A stretch of DNA of 64,000 nucleotides from Candidatus Microgenomatus sp. (GCA_020724555.1 DYGT01000001.1:65197-129196); one strand, 5' to 3'. Shown: positions 392 to 49,669, numbered from the stretch's first letter. Numbers and translations: made by a program. The notes: generated by a model from the letters alone, not told the origin.

Positions 392-796
392 TTAGAGAAA
401 AAGTTCAAGCCAAGCTTCCCAGTTACGAAGCGGGCGCATTTCTTCGTCTGGTTTTTGGGTTCTGGGTGATAAACGGCGAAGCACATCTTCCTGGGGCAGC
501 ACAAGCACTACTTCGCCTTCGTGTACTAAATTAAGCTTATCGTGCGCTTCTTTATCCAGATATTGCCTACTTTGAATCATCTCCAGATCTTCTTTTAATT
601 GATCCTGAATCTCGTTTAGCTCAGTTAATTGATTTTTTGCAGATATTATTTGTTGCCGGGCATTTTTAATTTTAATTATATTTCTGCCAAGCGATAAACC
701 CATAACAATAAATATAAAAAGCAGAAATAGAGTTGATAAAGAACCAATTTTATGCTTAAAGTTTGGGAATTTTTGGATTAAATTTGAGTGACCCAT
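392..796 (-). CDS. Septum formation initiator-like protein (FtsB/DivIC family)
   Basis: 134 aa with an N-terminal TM helix followed by a coiled coil (ARQQIISAKNQLTELNEIQDQLKEDLEMIQ). This is the typical FtsB/DivIC architecture. Confidence 0.5.
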   Translation of the reverse strand: MGHSNLIQKFPNFKHKIGSLSTLFLLFIFIVMGLSLGRNIIKIKNARQQIISAKNQLTELNEIQDQLKEDLEMIQSRQYLDKEAHDKLNLVHEGEVVLVLPQEDVLRRLSPRTQKPDEEMRPLRNWEAWLELFL

Positions 797-945: not shown

Positions 946-1809
946 ATGTCAAACGAAACTTTTCACACACTTCTGCCTAAATTTATCGAGGATTTAGGAC
1001 AAAAAGGCCGGTCTCCCTCTACAATTCTAGCCTATAAAGCTGACCTTGAGCAGCTTGTCGATTACGCCACGCGCCACAGCAAATCCGAACCGGAACAAAT
1101 GGAGCCAACGGATATCGAAGCTTTCCGTGACTACCTTTTAACACAAAACTATACACCCAAAACAGTCTCGCGAAAACTTAATGCCATCAAAACTTTTTAT
1201 CGCTGGCTTATTGACGAAAAATTTATCACCCGCGACCCCTCAAAAGATGTAGGGCACCCAAAAATTGAATCATCTGTGCCAAAATTTTTATCACAGCTTG
1301 AATACCGGGCGCTTCGTGATGTAGTAAGAAGTGACCCCAGGATTGCCGCCATTATCGAGCTTATTCTTCAAACGGGCATGCGTATTTCGGAAGTAGCCAA
1401 CCTTAAGCGCTACAACATAGAAGAAGACCGTCTGACAATTGAAGCGCATGCTACCCAGCCCGGGCGCAAGGTGGAACTAAACGAAGCTGCGAGAAATGCC
1501 ATAAACGAATATCTGGAAGTGCGGCCTAAAGCTGAATCTGAATTTTTGTTTGTCAGCAAAAACGGCAAGCCACTGGCCGTTAGAAATATCCGAGCAGCCA
1601 TCGACCGCTATATGGAAAAAGCCGGTATGCCCCAATACTCAGTCAACGACATCCGCACAACTTTTATCGTCGAAAACTTAAAGCGTGGCGTCGATTTGGT
1701 AACGGTTTCACAAGCAGCTGGCCACAAACGCCTATCCACCACAGAGCGGTATTTGGAGCTCGCGGACATCAAAGAGCCCGGTAAAGAGCAAAAACTCGAA
1801 GAGCTTTAA
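946..1809 (+). CDS. Tyrosine site-specific recombinase/integrase (XerC/XerD-like)
   Basis: N-terminal SAM-like core-binding domain (AYKADLEQL...FRDYL). The C-terminal catalytic region carries the His-Arg motif and the catalytic Tyr (AGHKRLSTTERYLEL). The gene is flanked by tRNA genes. Confidence 0.8.
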   Translation: MSNETFHTLLPKFIEDLGQKGRSPSTILAYKADLEQLVDYATRHSKSEPEQMEPTDIEAFRDYLLTQNYTPKTVSRKLNAIKTFYRWLIDEKFITRDPSKDVGHPKIESSVPKFLSQLEYRALRDVVRSDPRIAAIIELILQTGMRISEVANLKRYNIEEDRLTIEAHATQPGRKVELNEAARNAINEYLEVRPKAESEFLFVSKNGKPLAVRNIRAAIDRYMEKAGMPQYSVNDIRTTFIVENLKRGVDLVTVSQAAGHKRLSTTERYLELADIKEPGKEQKLEEL

Positions 1810-1917
1810 ACTTCATATTAGTGGATGTACATCGGCGGTCTTGTGGGCCAGGATGGATTCAAACCATCGACTTCCAACTTACGTTAACTAATTGTTAACG
1901 CACCAAAATGGAGTTTG

Positions 1918-1990
1918 TGGATGTGCATGGATTTGAACCATGGACCCCCGACTTATAAGATCGGTGCTCTAACCGCTGAGCTACACATCC
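1918..1990 (-). tRNA. tRNA-Ile with anticodon TAT (UAU, reads AUA)
   Basis: Reverse complement: GGATGTG-TA-GCTC/AGCGGTTA/GAGC-A-CCGAT/CTTATAA/GTCGG-GGGTC-CATGG/TTCAAAT/CCATG-CACATCC-A. It is a perfect 73-nt cloverleaf with anticodon loop CU-UAU-AA. Confidence 0.75.
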
Positions 1991-2042
1991 ATTTTGGTGT
2001 AAGATTGACAGAGGTATAATATTTTACCAAACCGAAGCTATT

Positions 2043-4364
2043 TTATTTAAATTTATTCCTTCTGTCTATCTCTGCCTCAACTTGCCTTACGTCACGCCCA
2101 TATTTAAGCCTGCTCATTTCTTTTATTATCTCTGCCACTTTCGGGTTTCCTTTCTTCGCAATCTCGTTTAAATCCATAGTCAAATCCATACTAAACGGCG
2201 GCACAGGTTCGTTATTGACGATGGTTTTTATATAAACATTATAGCGCTCAATGTTTAACAAATCCTCCTCACTAAAAGTAGGAGCATATTCGTGCGTTAA
2301 ATAACTTGCATCATTAACACCCACACGGTAGGAAATCAAAGTACCCACGTTTCCGAAAACTGCGTTTTTAACTTCCTCGTCCACCTGACCAATAAACTGG
2401 TTTGCCACGGTCAGGCTTAACTTGTATTTTCGCGCTTCGGACAAAATTTGGGCAAAATCCGGTGTGGCAAAATTCTGAAACTCGTCAACATATAGATAAA
2501 AATTGCGCCTTTGCTCTTCCGGGATATCTGCCCGACTCATAGCAGCCATTAAGATTCTTGGTACTAAAACCAAGCCCAAAAAACTGCTGTTTTCTTCGCC
2601 AAGCTCTCCTTTGGAAAGATTAATCAGAAGAATCTTTCCCTCATCCATAACGCGTCTGAAGTCAAACGAAGAACGAGATTGCCCCACAATATTGCGGATA
2701 GTCCTATTGCCTACAAAGCGCCCGAATTTAGATACCGTATAATCCAATACTTCGGATTTGTGAAAATCTGAGGTTTGCGCAATCTGATCCTGCCAATAAC
2801 TCCTTACCATTGGATCATGAACATTAGGCAAGAGCTCACGTACAAAATCTGAATTAGTCATAACCCGCATCACTTCAATAAATGTGCCGCCTTCCATTCC
2901 TTGCATAACTGTGAGCATTGCATTTCGCACCCCATGTTCAAACCTGGGTCCCACTATCCCCGTTTTATAAGGATCAAAAAGCTTATACATCATATTAATA
3001 ACGGCTGTGGCTGCAAAATGCTGCTGGTCTTCATTTGCCGCTTCCAAAAGGTTTAAGCCCATGGGCCGCTCGGTATCAGAAGGACGAAAATAAATAACAT
3101 CTTCCACACGGCTTGGGGGCACAAAATTTAAAATATCTTCAACCGCGTCTCCGTGCGGATCCATAAAACAAAGACCATGACCGGCTTCAATATCTTGCCT
3201 AATCATAGATTTTAAAAACTCGCTTTTCCCAGTCCCTGTGCGGCCAATAATATACATATGTCTTTGCCGGTCCGACTCGGAAATAAACACATCCCTGGAA
3301 ACCCCACGGTAGTTGCTTTTCCCCAAAAAAAGTCCTTCCTGAGGAATTTGGGCCGGGGCAGGCGCGGTTTTTGCATTCAGCCAATAAATATGGGGCGTGG
3401 TAATTAATTTATTGGGAAAATGAAAAATGGTCGCCAATTCTTCACTATTTAAAATAGACACCCTACTGCCCAAACGAAACATAGGCTGATAACGGTAAAT
3501 AAAATTGGTTATAAAAGCAGATTTATTGCGAATTTTTTTGCTCCCCAAACTGTTAAGCTCACTATTAAACTGAGAAAAAGCGCTTGTAATATTGGATAAG
3601 TGAGCCTTCGCCATTTCTATGGTTTCAGACACAACTACAACGCGGATATTTGTATCAAATCCAGGTTTGCTTATTTTATTTTCTATCGCTTCCAGGGTTT
3701 TGGCAGGAACTGCGTATTTGGCTTTTTCCGGGTCGGCCTCCTGTTTTTTAGTTGAAGATATAAATGATTTACCTGCACCCTGCCAACTTGATTCAGCGGG
3801 TGATAATAAAATCTGCACAACCGCTGCTTCATCTTTACCCATTTTGGCCATGGCAGACGTTATGGATGCCAAAGGGTCTACCGGTAAATCTTTATAAGTT
3901 TTTAAGGGTAGATAGTTTTCTTTTTTCAGCTCAAGGGCTTTGTAAGCAACTTTACCGGTTTCGTTAAAAATGTTATATTCGTCAACAACACTAATTTTCG
4001 CATCAGGATAAGCCCCATGCACCTGTTTTTCTACCAAATCTCTTAAGGCACCCGTCGTCCAGATATAAAAACGAATGTCCTCAGAGCGGGCGACGATTTC
4101 AAAGGATATGACCGGCTGACTATCAAAACGCATTTTCCATCCGCCTTTTTTTATTGAATAAAGCGAGGCAAACAACTGCTCCATGGCATCAATTTTTATT
4201 TCATTGTTGCGCTGAACTGCAACCAACAACAAAATCCCATCCAAAGAGCGCTCTTCCCTTTTTCTGTTGCGGTAAAGAATAAAAAAATAGTATGCAAATA
4301 AAAAAAACAAAAAAAAGACTATTGTGCCGCCAACTAAAACTGGAATTAATAAATTAATATCCAT
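2043..4364 (-). CDS. virD4: Type IV secretion coupling protein-like ATPase (VirD4/TraD/TrwB family)
   Basis: N-terminal TM helix, then Walker A (IIGRTGTGKSEF) followed about 25 aa later by the TrwB/TraD-type CFMDPHGD motif. There is a Walker B-like YLYVDEFQNF further on. Start chosen at MDINLL (4364), 4 nt after the stop of the upstream ORF; the alternative start is 4397. Confidence 0.65.
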   Translation of the reverse strand: MDINLLIPVLVGGTIVFFLFFLFAYYFFILYRNRKREERSLDGILLLVAVQRNNEIKIDAMEQLFASLYSIKKGGWKMRFDSQPVISFEIVARSEDIRFYIWTTGALRDLVEKQVHGAYPDAKISVVDEYNIFNETGKVAYKALELKKENYLPLKTYKDLPVDPLASITSAMAKMGKDEAAVVQILLSPAESSWQGAGKSFISSTKKQEADPEKAKYAVPAKTLEAIENKISKPGFDTNIRVVVVSETIEMAKAHLSNITSAFSQFNSELNSLGSKKIRNKSAFITNFIYRYQPMFRLGSRVSILNSEELATIFHFPNKLITTPHIYWLNAKTAPAPAQIPQEGLFLGKSNYRGVSRDVFISESDRQRHMYIIGRTGTGKSEFLKSMIRQDIEAGHGLCFMDPHGDAVEDILNFVPPSRVEDVIYFRPSDTERPMGLNLLEAANEDQQHFAATAVINMMYKLFDPYKTGIVGPRFEHGVRNAMLTVMQGMEGGTFIEVMRVMTNSDFVRELLPNVHDPMVRSYWQDQIAQTSDFHKSEVLDYTVSKFGRFVGNRTIRNIVGQSRSSFDFRRVMDEGKILLINLSKGELGEENSSFLGLVLVPRILMAAMSRADIPEEQRRNFYLYVDEFQNFATPDFAQILSEARKYKLSLTVANQFIGQVDEEVKNAVFGNVGTLISYRVGVNDASYLTHEYAPTFSEEDLLNIERYNVYIKTIVNNEPVPPFSMDLTMDLNEIAKKGNPKVAEIIKEMSRLKYGRDVRQVEAEIDRRNKFK

Positions 4365-4368
4365 AAGT

Positions 4369-4704
4369 TTATTTTCCCACAACCGCTTGAAAACCACGCT
4401 TTAATGCCATATGTATCGCTCGAAGGATTGCCACACCGCTCCAAGTACGAGCTTCTGAATCTGAACCCTTTGACCAGGATTTTGCAGTTTTTTCGTCCGC
4501 CGGAACGACAACGATTTTTGCCGGATCCATATTGGCAACGGGATCTGTGGTCTTTGCAATAGTCCGCTTGTCATCAGTTATTGACTGTGCCTGAGCAGGG
4601 CGCGGTGTTATCCCCTGTTCTGCCATAGATTCGGTAACGTCAACAGTTTCCGGGGTAAACTGAATCTTATTGGGTTTGGTATTAATATTTTCGGGCGAGG
4701 ACAT
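4369..4704 (-). CDS. Hypothetical protein, translationally coupled to the coupling-protein gene
   Basis: 111-aa ORF whose stop lies 4 nt before the VirD4-like start. No recognisable domain. Confidence 0.35.
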   Translation of the reverse strand: MSSPENINTKPNKIQFTPETVDVTESMAEQGITPRPAQAQSITDDKRTIAKTTDPVANMDPAKIVVVPADEKTAKSWSKGSDSEARTWSGVAILRAIHMALKRGFQAVVGK

Positions 4705-4718
4705 GTACCCTCATTGTA

Positions 4719-5264
4719 TCACTTTGGCATTCCCTTCCAAGGAGTTTCTTTAATGCCAGCCAAATAATTTTCCAACCTGGCAAAAGTAAACATCATATCA
4801 GACAGGCGGTTCATGAATCTTATAGTTTCAGGTTCCACTTGGGAATTTTGCGCCAGAAAAACAAGGGCCCTTTCAGCCCTTCGCACCAGCGTGCGGGCAT
4901 AATGAAGGTGAGCAGCGATCAAGGTTCCGCCGGGCAAAATAAAATTACTCAAAGGGGTAATAACTTTGTCTATTTGATCAATTTTTTTCTCAAGCACCGC
5001 GGTGTCGCCTTTTTTCAGCTTAAGGTCAGCCCCTGCAAGCTGGGAGTTGATTAAAAACAGTTTTGTTTGGATTGTTATGAGTGAATCAACAAGCTCGCGC
5101 CTTGGATTCAAAGCAATAATTATTCCTAAATAACTATTTAGCTCATCTAATTTTCCTATAGCCTGAAGGCGCGGCTCGCTTTTATAAATTCGCCTTCCCC
5201 GGGTTAATTCTTTAGAAAAAAGAGTGGTTGTACCTTGGTCGCCTTTTTTTGTGTAAATCGGCAT
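4719..5264 (-). CDS. ATP:cob(I)alamin adenosyltransferase, PduO type
   Basis: N-terminus MPIYTKKGDQGTTTL matches the PduO/MMAB family signature. Sits downstream of the B12-dependent RNR. Confidence 0.8.
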   Translation of the reverse strand: MPIYTKKGDQGTTTLFSKELTRGRRIYKSEPRLQAIGKLDELNSYLGIIIALNPRRELVDSLITIQTKLFLINSQLAGADLKLKKGDTAVLEKKIDQIDKVITPLSNFILPGGTLIAAHLHYARTLVRRAERALVFLAQNSQVEPETIRFMNRLSDMMFTFARLENYLAGIKETPWKGMPK

Positions 5265-5270
5265 CTTATT

Positions 5271-7742
5271 TTAACATTCGCTGTGGCCGCAAACATAACA
5301 TTTTGAACACCCCTCCTCGTAAACCAAAGCACTTGCCCCGCAATTCGGGCAGATATCTGCTTTAACCACGCTTTCTTGTAAAAACATATTTTCTTGCGCA
5401 GCCGACACTTCAAGAAGTGGCTCTTGTTTGCTAAAACCGTTTGTATGGCCATTTTTTTGCGTATGTCCATTATCGACAGGAATCTCACCCACATCCTCTT
5501 TTAAATTAAGATGCGTAGATATAGCCACAGCTACGGCATCCGGAAGAGAACGTATACGATTGGCTCCAAAACCCACAGAACGCCGGCCGCCAATGCCAGA
5601 AAGCTGTTTAGCTATTTCAATTGCGCGCTCCCGCGGAGTTAAAGCCCCACGGAAACGGAGTGCGGTTGATACGGTCCTACCCAAAGCTTCTGCCACCGCA
5701 GTGATATCCGAGCCGGCTTTGCCGACGTTAATAAATATTTCTATTGGCTCTCCTTGGGCATTTTCATTAATAGTGATAAAGGCATTGCCCATAGGAGTAT
5801 TCATTTTGTAAGTTGCACCGGTTACTTTTAAAGGGCGCTCGAGCGTGGGTTCATAATTCTCCTCAGCTTCCTGTTTAGGCTTTTGGTCATTTTTTATGCC
5901 CATGTTTAAAACCTGCGCATCTTTACAGCCGTCACGAAAAACGGTAATGCCTTTACAATTATTTTCCCAGGCCAATAAATATGCATCTTTAATATCCTTG
6001 TCTGTCACGGAGTTGCGCATATTAATGGTTTTGCTGACTGCGTTTTCCGTATATTTTTGGAAAGCCGCTTGCATTTTTATATGCCAGTCGTGATGTATCT
6101 CATGTGCTGTACCAAATACGCGCCTCACTCCATCGGGAACCTCGGCTATATCTCTAACCGTTCCGTGTTCGCCAATTTTTCTTTCCAGTTCGGCGTTCCA
6201 AAACCCTTGCTTTTGAGCGATTTCTTTAAACTTCGGGTTTACAAAAGTAAGCGTACGCTCAAGGTGTTTATCTTTAACAATATGCTGGTAGGCTATCGCA
6301 AATATGGGCTCAATTCCGCTACTTGTACCGGCAATTATTGAAATTGTGCCGGTTGGCGCTATGGTAGTTACTGTAGAATTGCGCCGCGGCTTGTCATTTT
6401 TGTAGATACTTATCTCCCACAAAGGGAAAGCACCGCGCTCGCGAGCAAGCTTTTCGCTTTCCGCTACCGCTTCTTTTTGAATTACCTGCATAACTTTTTC
6501 ACCTAAATTCAAAGCTTCGCGCGAATCATAAGCAATCCCCAGATCAATTAACAAATCGGCCCACCCCCCAACACCCAGACCTATCCTTCTAATTGCCAAT
6601 GAGGTACGGCGGATCTGGTCCAAAGGGTACGGATTCATTTCTATAACATTGTCCATAAAACGCACTGCTTGCCTGGTTACTTTTTTAAGTTTATCCCAAT
6701 CAACATCTCGTCCTTCCTTTTTTTCAGTGACAAAATATGACAAAAATATCGAACCTAAATTACACGAATCAAACGGGTACAAAGGTTGTTCACCACAAGG
6801 ATTGGTGGATTCCACCGGACCTAAAGCGGGCACTGGATTCGCAGCACCTTCGTTCATTTTGTCTAAAAATACCAATCCCGGGTCACCCGTTTTCCAAGCG
6901 CTTTCGGCAATTTCATCAAAAATTTTTCTTGCGGACAAAGATCCTGCCACCTTTTTTGTTCTTGGATCTATAAGGTCATAATTTTCATCGTTTTTATAAG
7001 CTTCAATAAAATCGTTGGTTATGGCTACAGATATATTAAAATTAGTTATATCGCCCGTATCCTTGCAGTGGATAAACTCCTCAATATCGGGGTGATCAAC
7101 ACGTAAAATCCCCATGTTAGCTCCTCGCCTTTTGCCGCCTTGTTTTACTTCGTTGGTCGCGGCATCAAAAATCCGCATAAAAGAAACCGGGCCCGAAGCC
7201 GTACCGCTACTGCTTCTCACCATCGAACCTTTGGGCCGCAAACGGGAAAATGAAAAGCCCGTTCCCCCTCCACTTTTATGAATTAACGCCTGGTATTTAA
7301 GCGCATCAAAAATACCTTCTATCGAATCTTCTACAGGAAGGACAAAACAAGCTGAAAATTGAAGCATATTTCCGGTTCCGGCATTCATAAGAGTAGGAGA
7401 ATTCGGTAAAAATTCACGACTGACTAAAAGTTTGTAATATTCCTTGGCGTGGGCTACCACCTCGCGTTTTGTTTGTCCCCACAACGCCTCTGCCGAGGCA
7501 ATTTCCCAAGAAACTCTCCAGCACATATCTTCAGGCGTTTCGACAACCTCTCCTTTTTCATTTTTTTGTAAATACCTTTCCTCTAATACCTTTAAAGCCT
7601 GTTCTGTCCAATTCCCTTGAGGAAGGTTGTTAGGCAGAGGTGGAAGCTCACCGACTATTTTTATAATTTTGGCTTTATTTTCCTCGTAAGAAGCAAATTC
7701 TAAGTTTTCTAATGTAGGTATTTGTTTATTTTTTCTTGGCAT
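5271..7742 (-). CDS. nrdJ: Adenosylcobalamin-dependent ribonucleotide reductase (class II, NrdJ)
   Basis: 823 aa with the RNR active-site motif NPCGEQPL. There is no ATP cone. The C-terminal Cys cluster is CPNCG...CSKCYVCG. Co-operonic with nrdR and the adenosyltransferase. Confidence 0.85.
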   Translation of the reverse strand: MPRKNKQIPTLENLEFASYEENKAKIIKIVGELPPLPNNLPQGNWTEQALKVLEERYLQKNEKGEVVETPEDMCWRVSWEIASAEALWGQTKREVVAHAKEYYKLLVSREFLPNSPTLMNAGTGNMLQFSACFVLPVEDSIEGIFDALKYQALIHKSGGGTGFSFSRLRPKGSMVRSSSGTASGPVSFMRIFDAATNEVKQGGKRRGANMGILRVDHPDIEEFIHCKDTGDITNFNISVAITNDFIEAYKNDENYDLIDPRTKKVAGSLSARKIFDEIAESAWKTGDPGLVFLDKMNEGAANPVPALGPVESTNPCGEQPLYPFDSCNLGSIFLSYFVTEKKEGRDVDWDKLKKVTRQAVRFMDNVIEMNPYPLDQIRRTSLAIRRIGLGVGGWADLLIDLGIAYDSREALNLGEKVMQVIQKEAVAESEKLARERGAFPLWEISIYKNDKPRRNSTVTTIAPTGTISIIAGTSSGIEPIFAIAYQHIVKDKHLERTLTFVNPKFKEIAQKQGFWNAELERKIGEHGTVRDIAEVPDGVRRVFGTAHEIHHDWHIKMQAAFQKYTENAVSKTINMRNSVTDKDIKDAYLLAWENNCKGITVFRDGCKDAQVLNMGIKNDQKPKQEAEENYEPTLERPLKVTGATYKMNTPMGNAFITINENAQGEPIEIFINVGKAGSDITAVAEALGRTVSTALRFRGALTPRERAIEIAKQLSGIGGRRSVGFGANRIRSLPDAVAVAISTHLNLKEDVGEIPVDNGHTQKNGHTNGFSKQEPLLEVSAAQENMFLQESVVKADICPNCGASALVYEEGCSKCYVCGHSEC

Positions 7743-8186
7743 TTATTTACCTTCTATAGCTTTTTCAAAATCTGTCAAAACTTCAAATTCCAAATATACG
7801 CTGGCAAATCTCAACCAGGCTACTCTATCAACTTTTTTAAGTCTCTTCAAGACTGCAGAACCAATTTCTTTTGAAGATACTTCTTCACGCTCATGCCTAA
7901 GCATCTCCCGCTCTACCTGGTCAACTAATTCATTAACGTACTCCAAAGAAATCGGTCTTTTTTCTATGGCCCTTAATACTCCCCTTTTAATTTTTTCGCG
8001 ATCAAAGGGTTCCCGCCGACCGCTTTTTTTTACCACCCATAAAACACTGCCTTTTACCTTTTCGTAGGTGGTAAAGCGTTTCTTGCATTTACTGCATTTT
8101 CTCCGCCTTCTGACGGCATCACCCTCGTCAACCACGCGTGACTCCAGTACTTGTGTATCGATATTAGAACAAAAAGGACATTTCAT
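7743..8186 (-). CDS. nrdR: Transcriptional repressor NrdR
   Basis: MKCPFCSNIDTQVLESR...CSKCKKRFTTYE gives the zinc ribbon, and it is followed by an ATP-cone. Confidence 0.9.
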   Translation of the reverse strand: MKCPFCSNIDTQVLESRVVDEGDAVRRRRKCSKCKKRFTTYEKVKGSVLWVVKKSGRREPFDREKIKRGVLRAIEKRPISLEYVNELVDQVEREMLRHEREEVSSKEIGSAVLKRLKKVDRVAWLRFASVYLEFEVLTDFEKAIEGK

Positions 8187-9593: not shown

Positions 9594-10097
9594 CTAATAT
9601 TTTAATTGTACACTACATTCGCCAAAGACCTCATCAATTGCCACGATTACCATTTCGATTCTTTTTTCAGCTTCCACAAGATCTATGGCATTTTGTTCAT
9701 TGGGGAACCAATGGGTAACTAAATTGCGTGAATTTTTCCAAGTCTGCCATAATTTTTGGGGAAGCGCTTCGCCTTTACAAAACTTGGTCAAATCATCGTA
9801 AACCCAATCGTTGTCCCGAAATCTTGGATCCAAAGTAGGATTAAGGGATTTTCCAATACGAAAGTGTTTGCCGTAGTAGTCATCTTTGCTAATAAAACCC
9901 ATGTCCAAAAAAAGCTTTTTTAAAAACCCCTCATAAGCTTTGGCTGCCGGAAAAACCACAAAAGAATAATCATGAAACGATTGGTCCCACTCTTTTGTCC
10001 GAACCAAAAGCACCAAAGACTCAGATAAAAGCTCCTGCAAATCCCGCTCAAGATACATCCACCACTTTTTTTGTCTTAAATCTTCAAGTTTAATCAT
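9594..10097 (-). CDS. Hypothetical cytoplasmic protein, possible HEPN-like (Rx4H motif)
   Basis: 167 aa and all-alpha-looking. It contains SRNLVTHW, which fits the Rx4-6H HEPN motif. Its stop abuts the CPBP protease start. Confidence 0.4.
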   Translation of the reverse strand: MIKLEDLRQKKWWMYLERDLQELLSESLVLLVRTKEWDQSFHDYSFVVFPAAKAYEGFLKKLFLDMGFISKDDYYGKHFRIGKSLNPTLDPRFRDNDWVYDDLTKFCKGEALPQKLWQTWKNSRNLVTHWFPNEQNAIDLVEAEKRIEMVIVAIDEVFGECSVQLKY

Positions 10098-46947: not shown

Positions 46948-48327
46948 ATGGAAAAATTTGATAAAGAACAAGTATGGCGTGATGCGCTCCAAAGCGTCAA
47001 GCTTTCTGTTTCTCCTGCAATTTTTCAAACCTGGCTTTCCCAGACTCATTTAGTGAGTTTGCAAAACAAAGGTGAAAAACGCTATTCGGCCGAGGTCGGC
47101 TGCCCTTCTGCCTTCATCAAATCAACCGTTGAAAAGCGCTATTTCGGACTTATTCAAGACGCGCTTATAAAAGCCGTCGAAAGCCCGGTTGATTTAATAT
47201 TCTTAGTTAAAGCACCAACGCAAAAATGGCAAGAAAAAAACACTCAACTACCACCTTTGTTTGATGAAAAAGATACTCAAGCGGAACTAAGGGAGTTGGC
47301 AATAAAAACCAGGCTGCGACCCGGTTTTACTTTTTCCAACTTCGCCGTTTCTGATTCTAATCAAATGGCGCACGCAGCGGCCGAGGCTGTAGCCCAAAAG
47401 CCTGGTATCAACTATAACCCACTATTTATTTGGGGAGGAGTAGGAGTGGGTAAAACGCATTTAATGCATGCGGTTGGTTACCGAATGCTTGAAACAAACA
47501 TGGGGTCAAAAATTATTGTTTGTACCGGAGAAGAATTTACAAACGACATTGTAGAAGGAATCAGAAACAAAACTACACAAAAATTTCGGGATAAATACAG
47601 AAAGGCAAACGCGCTTTTCATAGACGATATTCAATTTATTGCCGGAAAGGACGCGGTACAAAATGAGTTTTTCCATACCTTCAACGCCGTAACCGCTGCC
47701 GGTGGTCAGATAATCCTTACCTCAGACAAGCCACCTACAGAAATTGCCAAACTCGAAGACAGATTAAGAAGCCGCTTTGAAGCCGGATTAATCGTAGACG
47801 TTGCTCCACCCGACTTCGAACTAAGGTGTGCGATTACACAAATAAAAGCCCGGGAAAAAGAATTAGATTTAAGCAATGAAATAGTTCACATGATTGCAGG
47901 GAATATGGATACTGCAAGAAAAATAGAAGGATTATTAGTGAGGCTTTCATCAGAAGTTAAATTAAAAAATGCAGTTATCAGTGAAGAGCTTATCCAAAGC
48001 CTGGTTGGTGCAAACGCTAAAAGCGAAAACTTTGAAAAGCGTTTAAATCCGGATAGCGTTATGGATGCTGTTTGTAAACATTATTCAATTAGTAGACGGG
48101 CAATGACCGGTAAAGCTCGCGCGCGCATAATAGCCAGGCCCCGCCAAGTTTTAATGTACCTACTTCGAACTGAGCTTGGCATGCCTCTTGAAGAAGTGGG
48201 GCGGATGATTGGCGGGAGAGATCATTCCACTGTGATTCACGCTGTGGATAAAATTACCAAATTAGCCTCACAAGATATTAACACGCGTGAAGATATCTTG
48301 CAGATAAAAAATAATTTTGGCGGATAA
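46948..48327 (+). CDS. dnaA: Chromosomal replication initiator protein DnaA
   Basis: AAA+ Walker A GGVGVGKTHL, the sensor motifs, and the C-terminal DNA-binding domain. Confidence 0.95.
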   Translation: MEKFDKEQVWRDALQSVKLSVSPAIFQTWLSQTHLVSLQNKGEKRYSAEVGCPSAFIKSTVEKRYFGLIQDALIKAVESPVDLIFLVKAPTQKWQEKNTQLPPLFDEKDTQAELRELAIKTRLRPGFTFSNFAVSDSNQMAHAAAEAVAQKPGINYNPLFIWGGVGVGKTHLMHAVGYRMLETNMGSKIIVCTGEEFTNDIVEGIRNKTTQKFRDKYRKANALFIDDIQFIAGKDAVQNEFFHTFNAVTAAGGQIILTSDKPPTEIAKLEDRLRSRFEAGLIVDVAPPDFELRCAITQIKAREKELDLSNEIVHMIAGNMDTARKIEGLLVRLSSEVKLKNAVISEELIQSLVGANAKSENFEKRLNPDSVMDAVCKHYSISRRAMTGKARARIIARPRQVLMYLLRTELGMPLEEVGRMIGGRDHSTVIHAVDKITKLASQDINTREDILQIKNNFGG

Positions 48328-48565
48328 TTTGTTTATAAATCACCCGCTTATCCACATATAAACAAAAATAACTATATCCTCCACAAATTTATCAACAAAA
48401 GTTTCAAGGCAACAATCTACAATTCCACTAGCGCTTATAGCCAGCGTAATATTCTACTTATCCACACGGCCTACTGCTACTACTACTGTATTAAATAAAT
48501 AAATTATATAAAACAAAAAAATATGACTTGTGAATAATCGGCGATGTCATATAATGCATATAAAT
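48328..48565. promoter_or_regulatory. oriC candidate: DnaA-box cluster plus an AT-rich unwinding region between dnaA and dnaN
   Basis: Perfect TTATCCACA at 48348-48356 and 48458-48466. One-mismatch boxes TTATCAACA at 48389-48397 and TGTGAATAA (reverse) at 48529-48537. AT-rich tract at 48490-48525. Confidence 0.65.
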
Positions 48566-49669
48566 ATGAATGTGTCTGTTTTTCAAAAAGATTTATCACA
48601 AAGCGTTTTTCTTACCACTCATTTTGTTTCTAAAACCGCTCAACTGCCCATCCTTGAGAACGTGCTTTTAAGAACCAAAAAAAATAAACTTCAATTAATG
48701 GCAACTAATTTAGAAATGTCTGTGCTGGCCAGTGTTGCCGCCAAAGTGTCGGAAGAGGGAGAAATCGCCGTTCCTGCACGTACTTTTTCGGAGATAATTA
48801 CAAATTTACAAAGCGAGCAGGTAAAACTTGAAAGTCATGAAGAAATTTTAAAAATTAAAACAGATACAACAACTGTTGATTTATCCGGCATGAATACATC
48901 GGATTTTCCGGATGTACCTTCACAGATTCCGGACAGTGCTGTTTTTATTCCTGTTTCTGAATTTATCGAAGCTTTAACTCAAGTTAGTTTTGCGGCTTCA
49001 CGCGATGAAACAAGGCCACAGCTGACAGGCATACTTTTTATTATGGAGTCGGGAAGTTTAAAACTTGTTGCCTCAGATGGTTTCCGTTTGTCGCAAAAAA
49101 CTATCAAAGTTCCCGGGGATGCCAAATCCAAAAAAGTGATTATTCCTAAAAATATACTTTTAGAATTGCAAAAAGGTATAAAGGACGAGGATGAACTAAA
49201 GCTTTTTATAAATGAAGAAGATAACGAAGTTTTATTTACTTCGAGTGACTGTGTTTTTAGTAGCCGTGTAATAGAAGGTGAGTTTCCAAATTTTGAGCGT
49301 ATTATTCCCAAGTCCAGTAGTGTTACTGCTAATTTTGATAAAGACGAGTTTGCAAAAGTCATTAAGGTTGCCTCGGTTTTTGCGCGCGATACTGCAAATA
49401 TCGTGATGCTTAAAGTGAATGAGGGAAGTTTGTCTGTCCGGGCTGAAAGTAGCCGTAGTGGGCGCGGCGAAGCAACTATTCCTGCCAAAGTGGAAGGTGA
49501 TCCGGTGGAGATATCTTTTAACTTTAAGTTTATTGAGGACTTTTTGGCAGTTTCAAAATCAAGCGAAATCGAGATCGCTCTCACAAATACAACTTCTCCC
49601 GGAGTTTTTAAGGATATCAGCTCCCCGGATTTTCTTCACTTAATCATGCCTGTAAGGGTGCAAGAGTAG
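48566..49669 (+). CDS. dnaN: DNA polymerase III beta sliding clamp
   Basis: Three-domain beta-clamp sequence. Start chosen at MNVSVFQKDL. Confidence 0.85.
   Translation: MNVSVFQKDLSQSVFLTTHFVSKTAQLPILENVLLRTKKNKLQLMATNLEMSVLASVAAKVSEEGEIAVPARTFSEIITNLQSEQVKLESHEEILKIKTDTTTVDLSGMNTSDFPDVPSQIPDSAVFIPVSEFIEALTQVSFAASRDETRPQLTGILFIMESGSLKLVASDGFRLSQKTIKVPGDAKSKKVIIPKNILLELQKGIKDEDELKLFINEEDNEVLFTSSDCVFSSRVIEGEFPNFERIIPKSSSVTANFDKDEFAKVIKVASVFARDTANIVMLKVNEGSLSVRAESSRSGRGEATIPAKVEGDPVEISFNFKFIEDFLAVSKSSEIEIALTNTTSPGVFKDISSPDFLHLIMPVRVQE

Follow-up and report, generated by a model that had tools for sequence, protein, structure and literature searches.

A conserved coupling protein-like ATPase gene in a Patescibacteria chromosome, 46 kb from the type IV secretion genes beside the replication origin

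The 64,000-nucleotide stretch DYGT01000001.1:65197-129196 of Candidatus Microgenomatus sp. (GCA_020724555.1; called "the window" below, with positions counted from its first letter) carries, near its left end, a gene for an ATPase of the type IV coupling protein (T4CP) family. This is a core, vertically inherited and strongly constrained gene with intact catalytic motifs, homologous to the coupling proteins of conjugation. The candidate coupling ATPase is not a stray mobile-element gene, and it is among the most conserved genes of its neighbourhood. We favour, with a probability of roughly 0.58, the reading that it is a core T4CP-family ATPase derived from a domesticated conjugation module of the mating-pair formation class MPF-FATA, and that it serves as second motor of the chromosomal type IV secretion system (T4SS), acting on a non-conjugative substrate.

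The window is part of a small chromosome, with a GC content of about 42%, of a Woesebacteria-like member of the Patescibacteria, or candidate phyla radiation (CPR), and every close relative found is a Candidatus Woesebacteria bacterium or another member of the Microgenomatia. Patescibacteria are host-dependent; to our knowledge, no T4SS other than their chromosomal one has been shown to be essential for a bacterium's growth. The locus bears on what this T4SS transports and on whether a coupling ATPase is used.

The ATPase, its fold and its small partner

2043-4364 (open reading frame to 4397), minus strand: T4CP-family ATPase gene, with Pfam TrwB_AAD_bind, TraG-D_C and DUF87
4269-4358, minus strand: predicted N-terminal membrane anchor of the ATPase, residues 14-43
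3408-4238, minus strand: DUF8128 N-terminal domain of the ATPase, residues 54-330, alpha/beta, with a predicted fold like that of the VirB4 N-terminal domain
2178-3332, minus strand: RecA-like domain of the ATPase, residues 356-740, with a helical insertion in the AlphaFold model
4369-4704, minus strand: small partner open reading frame (ORF) of 111 amino acids (aa), directly upstream of the ATPase gene

The ATPase ORF (2043-4397, minus strand) encodes 784 aa from a GTG start at 4397 or 773 aa from an ATG at 4364; the gene likely spans 2043-4364, because 773-aa homologues begin at that ATG (MNINLL), while residue numbers here follow the 784-aa form. Two Pfam models are matched above their gathering cut-offs, TrwB_AAD_bind with 28.3 bits (cut-off 20.5) and TraG-D_C with 23.6 bits (cut-off 22), and the best PDB sequence matches of the protein, found by profile search and covering the P-loop region only, are the coupling proteins DotL (6e-6) and TrwB (5e-4). 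The VirD4/TraD-like gene that had been noticed from the sequence alone is real. Both the Walker A motif (GRTGTGKS, 3222-3245) and the Walker B motif (LYVDE, 2481-2495) are intact, as found in P-loop ATPases of the VirB4/VirD4/HerA/FtsK clade, and the catalytic motifs are invariant. Within the VirB4/VirD4 clade the ATPase belongs to a separate family, with the curated NCBIfam models for TraD, VirD4 and VirB4 all missed widely (VirB4 TIGR00929, 15.7 bits against a cut-off of 643; the other two scores are given below). The sequence signature of the FtsK/SpoIIIE motor domain was not found in the ATPase. A substitute for FtsK was also considered, and is weakened by the annotated ftsK in TM7x (PMC10768705) and by a weaker sequence and fold match to FtsK.

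The family is large: 23,316 representatives of 50%-identity clusters match at E<=1e-3 and 6,087 at E<=1e-30, and PF26449 (DUF8128), present by precomputed annotation in more than 5,700 close homologues, marks the family across the Patescibacteria classes sampled. A scan with one genome per species gave at least 552 relatives, and the best 80, all Microgenomatia with 63-87% ATPase identity, were compared; these loci from one-per-species GTDB genomes, with four from exact-protein look-ups, make up the 84 loci fetched, 82 of them non-redundant. Beyond them, a 39%-identity representative led to homologues in Dojkabacteria, Doudnabacteria, Parcubacteria and Buchananbacteria. The ATPase had been called the only T4CP-like gene, and within the window this stands, since phmmer and a Walker A scan found no second such ORF there; the statement does not extend to the genome, as about two homologues per Patescibacteria genome have been published.

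In the AlphaFold model (48 homologues used, mean pLDDT 83) the N-terminal anchor is a single long hydrophobic helix, coinciding with a Kyte-Doolittle segment at residues 10-44, so that the transmembrane anchor expected of a T4CP is predicted here as one helix. Model helices 456-571, between Walker A and Walker B, form the all-alpha insertion seen in T4CPs, a feature that does not discriminate, as VirB4 C-terminal domains carry a helical insertion too. Structural alignment with TrwB covers 356 of 420 residues, and Foldseek aligns the ATPase over its full length with R388 TrwK/VirB4 (E 7e-18, about 860 columns), giving a predicted VirB4-type N-terminal domain followed by the ATPase domain. DUF8128 is thus predicted to have the fold of the VirB4 N-terminal domain, possibly a new point; the relationship is one of predicted structure only, because when hhalign compared the DUF8128 profile with those of TrsD (E 0.13) and VirB4 (E 0.67) from the window itself, neither comparison reached significance. 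The same lack of significant profile similarity to the window's TrsD and VirB4 sets the ATPase apart from VirB4/TrwK of R388 and from the VirB4 of Thermoanaerobacter pseudethanolicus. The genome already encodes a separate TrsD and VirB4 pair in its T4SS cluster (51877-54454).

The nearest relatives outside the CPR are long T4CPs of Gram-positive plasmids, encoded between VirB4 and a relaxase. Of the 598 records that a tblastn search of plasmids gave, 42 span 80% or more of the ATPase query at about 25% identity. On the Embleya sp. plasmid NZ_CP108778 the homologue WP_331738717.1 (812 aa; 25% identity over residues 58-767, E 8e-71, N-terminal domain included) stands in the order PrgI - XF1762 - VirB4 - homologue - Replic_Relax relaxase - NlpC/P60 hydrolase, and on the 63.6-kb Bacillus subtilis plasmid NZ_OX419581 a replication-relaxation protein comes directly after the 913-aa homologue WP_144625398.1, with members of the TcpD/TcpE family and an ATPase of VirB4 type downstream. 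Because such homologues hold the coupling-protein position in Gram-positive conjugation modules, we class the ATPase, by homology, as a genuine member of the "long" T4CPs. It has in common with them the Pfam signature (TrwB_AAD_bind, TraG-D_C, DUF87) and the motif ILNSEELATIFHFP / LLSVPELAALAHLP, and the type of the plasmid modules (PrgI, and VirB4 of the CD1110/AAA_10 kind) matches that of the cluster beside the window's replication origin (oriC). The plasmid proteins directly adjoin relaxase and VirB4, whereas the window ATPase is chromosomal and core, has no relaxase, is only about 25% identical to them, and lies 46 kb from the T4SS.

The coupled 111-aa ORF that had been noticed upstream is real: it ends 4 nt before the ATG of the ATPase gene, or overlaps the longer form with the GTG start by 29 nt. 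In 83 of 85 loci the ATPase start coincides with the end of an ORF of about 100-130 aa, and in Dojkabacteria, Doudnabacteria, Parcubacteria and Buchananbacteria, too, an abutting upstream ORF is constant. The N-terminal part is variable and a C-terminal amphipathic motif is conserved (alignment consensus tWla.fwlR.iKkA..fGw); in the Dojkabacteria and Parcubacteria loci the sequence of the abutting ORF is poorly conserved, with a similar terminal amphipathic helix. Searches of Pfam, NCBIfam, PADLOC and PHROG with the small ORF gave no match. Its positional conservation may be a new point. ATPase and small ORF would form a two-gene module in which, by analogy with CagZ-Cagbeta and with the DotL adaptors, the small protein is probably an adaptor or a regulator.

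A conserved block and the question of an island

7743-8186, minus strand: NrdR (Pfam)
5271-7742, minus strand: B12-type ribonucleotide reductase, RNR (Pfam)
4719-5264, minus strand: cob(I)alamin adenosyltransferase, CobAT (Pfam)
1917-1990, minus strand: tRNA-Ile(UAU), 53 nt downstream of the ATPase stop (ARAGORN; Rfam tRNA, 72.7 bits)
1843-1881, minus strand: orphan piece (3' half) from a distinct second tRNA-Ile(UAU), in the gap that separates the tRNA from the Xer stop (nhmmer E 2.6e-5, covering model positions 36-74)
946-1809, plus strand: Xer-like tyrosine recombinase, convergent with the ATPase and tRNA genes (Pfam Phage_integrase and SAM-like N domain)
392-796, minus strand: DivIC/FtsB-like septum protein, a conserved neighbour of Xer (Pfam DivIC, 1.2e-11)
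47-121 and 224-294: two tRNA-Met(CAU) genes

The ATPase gene is embedded in a block whose order, penicillin-binding protein (PBP)-HEPN-Rce1-DUF5667-NrdR-RNR-CobAT-(small ORF)-ATPase-tRNA-Ile-Xer-DivIC, is kept in the 82 non-redundant related loci. Among all 84, CobAT is found in 74, Xer in 71, RNR in 70 and DivIC in 67, absences being mostly contig ends, and tRNA-Ile(UAU) lies between ATPase and Xer in 72 of the 72 rows that hold both genes (71 related loci and the window). In 54 of 73 loci no other gene of the block is as well conserved as the ATPase. Median identities to the window are 69.4% for the ATPase, 69.0% for NrdR, 64.3% for Xer, 63.0% for RNR and 62.5% for PBP. NrdR, RNR and CobAT are on the same strand as the small ORF and packed against its upstream side, with intergenic gaps of 0-14 nt. 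Since a promoter and terminator scan for operon limits found sites no more frequent than in shuffled sequence, co-transcription of the ATPase gene with these three is something that we infer.

The two neighbours named by the sequence-only reading, tRNA-Ile(UAU) and a tyrosine recombinase, are both confirmed (ARAGORN and Rfam; Pfam and NCBIfam), the recombinase being Xer-like, with about 150-157 bits to NCBIfam XerA/XerC/XerD and thus under the equivalog cut-offs. A Xer gene also holds this position in three Dojkabacteria-type loci, which read SmpB - small ORF - ATPase - (variable) - Xer - ORF of about 135 aa, with FtsH and PolA next in two of the three; the Parcubacteria-type loci read CysRS - ORF of 165/176 aa - ATPase - ORF of about 200 aa - DnaX. 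The tRNA-Ile(UAU) gene, the Xer-like recombinase and DivIC belong to no mobile element but are neighbours by ancestry.

Together, a tRNA gene, a tyrosine recombinase and a T4CP-like gene do have the classic appearance of one end of an integrative and conjugative element, and the first alternative offered from the sequence alone was indeed a remnant of an unrelated element of this type, for which the tRNA gene would have been the point of entry and the recombinase the integrase. The orphan half 35 nt 3' of the tRNA, the tRNA-Ile and tRNA-Met orphan halves broken at the anticodon loop in many relatives, and the variable ATPase-Xer spacing among relatives (0.1 to 6.5 kb) would all suit such an origin. 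Nevertheless, the island reading fails, because the block is syntenic in 82 loci, its composition is native, attachment (att) repeats are absent and the ATPase lies on the 5' side of the tRNA; we regard it as highly improbable. The synteny reaches further still, with the order ATPase-Xer found in Dojkabacteria too, and the slowest-evolving gene of the block is the ATPase itself. Its composition is ordinary in GC content (0.407; window mean 0.417+/-0.033), in GC at third codon positions (GC3; 0.399; 0.384+/-0.042), in codon usage (codon distance 0.108; 0.129+/-0.029) and in tetranucleotide profile.

A search for tRNA-derived att repeats around the ATPase gene, exact and fuzzy, found nothing that brackets it (no repeat of at least 12 nt), the 12-nt matches being chance matches elsewhere and an inverted pair that flanks tRNA-Ile. 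Two of the checks proposed with the sequence-only reading, on composition and on direct repeats of the tRNA 3' end, thus came out against an island: the ATPase gene is typical of the window, and no repeat encloses it. The sole tRNA-Ile half-copy leaves the ATPase gene unenclosed, being on the Xer side at 35 nt from the tRNA. An element integrated into a tRNA gene is found 3' of the tRNA; the ATPase is 5' of it, on the same strand, and so on the wrong side for such an element.

No relaxase homologue was found in the window or in about 90 fetched CPR loci, and nearby relaxase, VirB4 and other transfer genes are likewise absent. ATPase-to-Xer spacing ranges among relatives from 115 bp to 6.5 kb, varying on either side of tRNA-Ile (e.g., L081 12277-18806, L060, L052), and the largest insert examined (L081, 6.5 kb) holds MgsA, ThyX, DUF6804 and unknown proteins, with no integrase, transposase or other mobility gene. 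A pattern scan of IMG/VR gave 140 matches, none of them confirmed as a relative. The term "integration hotspot", used of the locus before, is apt for the tRNA genes themselves, with their orphan half-copies in many relatives, but does not apply to the ATPase gene.

One further candidate is a HerA/DndH-type ATPase of an anti-phage defence system. PADLOC does return matches, but these are generic to the ATPase fold or partial, and no nuclease, Sir2 or other effector partner is adjacent. The universal, single-site and highly conserved distribution is the opposite of that of patchy defence genes, and the TraG-D_C domain and the homology to plasmid T4CPs fit a coupling protein better, so that a defence role strikes us as very unlikely.

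Two side observations concern other members of the block. In some relatives a second ribonucleotide reductase gene, with an ATP-cone, stands between the first RNR and CobAT (L001 6973-9108, L002 5450-7651); the window has a single RNR (5271-7742). Inside the conserved core block, at 9594-10097 of the window, a 167-aa protein carries an RNase LS/RnlA-like HEPN toxin domain and is conserved (median 55% identity in 50 loci), which is unusual for a toxin-type domain.

The secretion cluster and the role of the ATPase

46948-48327 and 48530-49669, plus strand: dnaA and dnaN, marking the replication origin region (Pfam)
50385-63982, minus strand: oriC-proximal T4SS cluster, just past dnaN (Pfam, NCBIfam), which also holds a 499-aa ORF
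51877-53751/53835, minus strand: VirB4, CD1110 family (377 bits, cut-off 325)
53732-54454, minus strand: TrsD, overlapping the virB4 start
54451-55557, minus strand: PrgI/VirB3-like protein
55632-58148, plus strand: one of the large unknown ORFs of the cluster
63656-63982, minus strand: VirB2-like pilin

The ATPase gene lies 46.0 kb from the nearest gene of the T4SS cluster, as the sequence-only reading had it, and 47.5 kb from virB4. Between them are ordinary core genes: RNase H, L25, LeuRS, TsaD, GroEL, PGK, GAPDH, transketolase, aldolase, two class A PBPs, NrdR and ribonucleotide reductase, with rnpA, yidC and jag at 44.7-46.6 kb (minus strand). Cumulative GC skew reaches its minimum near 48-49 kb, which places the replication origin inside the window; the origin is thus truly there, but to call the interval the whole left arm of the replichore was an overstatement, as it spans 46 kb of a genome of probably about 0.9 Mb.

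The gene order of the cluster beside dnaN/dnaA recurs in relatives. On a relative's 925,565-bp contig the VirB4 cluster stands next to dnaN/dnaA at 798.6-800.5 kb and the ATPase at 851.9-854.2 kb, 51 kb apart, much as in the window, and the level of conservation is similar for VirB4 homologues and the ATPase. As side observations, VirB4 is paired with a separate, overlapping upstream TrsD/TraC-like gene that resembles its N-terminal domain (also at L090 9328-11896), an arrangement described for Patescibacteria, and virB4 probably begins near 53751, since a database protein of 100% identity (P0390) has its start there, 28 codons into the ORF.

This layout is one instance of a published, phylum-wide pattern. 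Among 3,035 Patescibacteria genomes, VirB4 was reported in 2,417, as a clade nested in MPF-FATA, with T4SS genes often near dnaA and relaxases almost absent, and 5,713 VirD4-type T4CP homologues were counted in 2,918 of the genomes, only 148 of these homologues being near virB4 (Quinonero-Coronel et al. 2025, Microb Genom 11:001409, PMC12102498). The window shows each of these features: VirB4, TrsD, PrgI/VirB3 and a VirB2-like pilin near dnaA, no relaxase, and a VirD4-type gene far from an oriC-proximal T4SS of MPF-FATA origin. The available text of that study counts the homologues and raises their exaptation as possible; domain architecture, partner ORF and conserved neighbourhood are not described in it. 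In Southlakia epibionticum the essential T4SS cluster is without recognizable coupling and relaxase proteins (Wang et al., PMC10633639).

In the reading that we prefer, a Gram-positive-type (MPF-FATA) conjugation module would have been domesticated in an ancestor of these bacteria; its PrgI-TrsD-VirB4-pilin part would have become fixed beside oriC, the coupling ATPase would have been kept at a separate core locus, and the relaxase would have been lost. A membrane-anchored ring ATPase of this kind, by analogy with TrwB, VirB4 and HerA, would use ATP to hand over or push a macromolecular substrate. The last and weakest step is that the ATPase would now be a second motor, or the substrate receptor, of the chromosomal T4SS for non-conjugative cargo. 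A T4SS assembled from dispersed loci, the second alternative of the sequence-only reading, is a plausible though unproven idea that the literature has raised before: the homology to plasmid T4CP modules and the layout, with about 50 kb between the parts, in a relative are consistent with it, while published data (PMC12102498) argue that the ATPase may act on its own.

Several observations weigh against a coupling role in the T4SS. By sequence, the ATPase stays below the cut-offs of the NCBIfam T4CP models (TraD, 51 against 366 bits; VirD4-like CD1115, 43 against 250). In architecture, the canonical T4CPs (TrwB of R388, VirD4, Cagbeta, DotL) have two membrane helices followed directly by the ATPase domain, whereas here the model shows a single long helix and, in addition, a domain of about 280 residues; in sequence, the ATPase resembles these proteins in the P-loop region and the TraG-D_C segment only. 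By position, linkage to relaxase or mating-pair-formation genes is lacking: no VirB4, TrsD, PrgI, pilin, DnaA or DnaN lies within 10 kb of the ATPase in the 84 loci, and no VirB4, TrsD, PrgI or pilin gene lies within 8 kb in the five more distant loci. By distribution, T4CP homologues reach further than VirB4 (2,918 against 2,417 of 3,035 genomes), and the t4cp gene of S. epibionticum, far from virB4, is reported to be non-essential for epibiotic growth while the T4SS genes are essential (both PMC12102498, available text). Lastly, neighbours that take part in deoxynucleoside triphosphate synthesis, Xer and DivIC, and DnaX in Parcubacteria, could point to a role in DNA housekeeping. In one locus, of Dojkabacteria type (L089; 1-116, 135-6896), genes for a faint TrbC/VirB2-like pilin, for a protein with a SpoIID domain and for an unknown protein of 804 aa lie 1-8 kb upstream of the ATPase; among the loci examined this is the sole hint of T4SS-type genes near it.

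The chief competitor is an exapted stand-alone motor, in which ATPase and small partner carry out T4SS-independent housekeeping on DNA or another polymer. Candidate tasks are to take up or export DNA for the sake of nucleotide economy, or to act at division in the manner of FtsK, together with the adjacent Xer. We give this reading about one chance in three. Besides the wider spread of the family, the dispensability reported for S. epibionticum and the separation from T4SS genes, it is favoured by the same-strand packing behind NrdR-RNR-CobAT, by Xer-DivIC-FtsH neighbours in Woesebacteria and Dojkabacteria with DnaX in Parcubacteria, and by a conservation that is extreme, equal to or above that of core enzymes.

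Full-length homologues in Bacillus phages, which have no T4SS, point the same way. The profile of phrog_5156, a family of unknown function, matches ATPase residues 213-768 (7.9e-98), and by tblastn large Bacillus phages, among them phage G (gp156, JN638751.1 91000-93120) and SPO1-like phages (e.g., KF669649.1 93701-96025), encode homologues that cover 82-88% of the query at 21-24% identity, most of the N-terminal domain included. Members of phrog_5156 differ from the window ATPase in being phage-encoded and outside any T4SS context. A more specific form of the idea, in which DUF8128 ATPase and partner make up a Patescibacteria-wide motor that no longer serves a T4SS, has kept the VirB4-type docking domain and has a core DNA-handling task, is a tentative proposal, a little less probable again. 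If true, a stand-alone motor would account for wider retention and slower evolution than those of the T4SS itself. The ATPase, its N-terminal domain and the partner ORF are concrete targets for genetics in culturable Saccharibacteria.

Nested tRNA genes and half-copies

A tRNA-Ile with UAU anticodon is uncommon in bacteria, in which AUA is mostly read by a lysidine-modified CAU tRNA. The 12-nt inverted repeat that flanks the window's gene (1901-1912 / 1988-1999) is accompanied by the orphan half at 1843-1881. This orphan is matched in the closest relative, L005, by the full tRNA's 3' half. There the arrangement is mirrored (L005, 2345-2507): the orphan is a 5' half and of the window's type, and the full tRNA that follows is of the same type as the window's orphan.

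Of 85 loci, 19 have half-copies within about 10-50 nt of a full tRNA-Ile gene, with 28 such pieces in all at E<=1e-3. The breakpoint is the anticodon loop, where 5' halves end and 3' halves begin. Ten loci have both halves, and in eight of these ten the outer acceptor stems, read by eye, are perfectly complementary, with compensatory changes relative to the inner gene. Three outer pairs, joined by hand, are called as tRNA-Ile(UAU) by ARAGORN, whose intron mode does not report the outer, interrupted genes. Examples are L012 13150-13340, L014 13648-13890, L022 11562-11800 and L054 5285-5469, and some loci have two layers of nested halves. Such loci read as a complete tRNA-Ile(UAU), bounded by short inverted repeats, that is nested in the anticodon loop of another tRNA-Ile(UAU) gene.

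The nested or half-copy arrangement is not described in a study of tRNA introns of Patescibacteria (PMC13011429), and the many relatives with a tRNA-Ile(UAU) nested in, or flanked by halves of, another tRNA-Ile may be a new point. As speculation, the pattern suggests recurrent site-specific insertion or replacement at tRNA anticodon loops, possibly with involvement of the adjacent Xer-like recombinase and not of the ATPase gene.

The tRNA-Met(CAU) genes beside DivIC show a related picture. In the window, the gene at 224-294, which may be an initiator, elongator or Ile2 tRNA, has a low tRNA score (47 bits). Among relatives there are 24 orphan pieces at E<=1e-3, and 20 of them are 3' halves that begin in the anticodon loop (model positions 29-34). 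Such 3' halves are the classic scar of tRNA-gene integration, here with no mobility genes seen alongside; examples are L041 15838-15877 and 15910-15951, L043 15573-15612 and L002 16373-16416.

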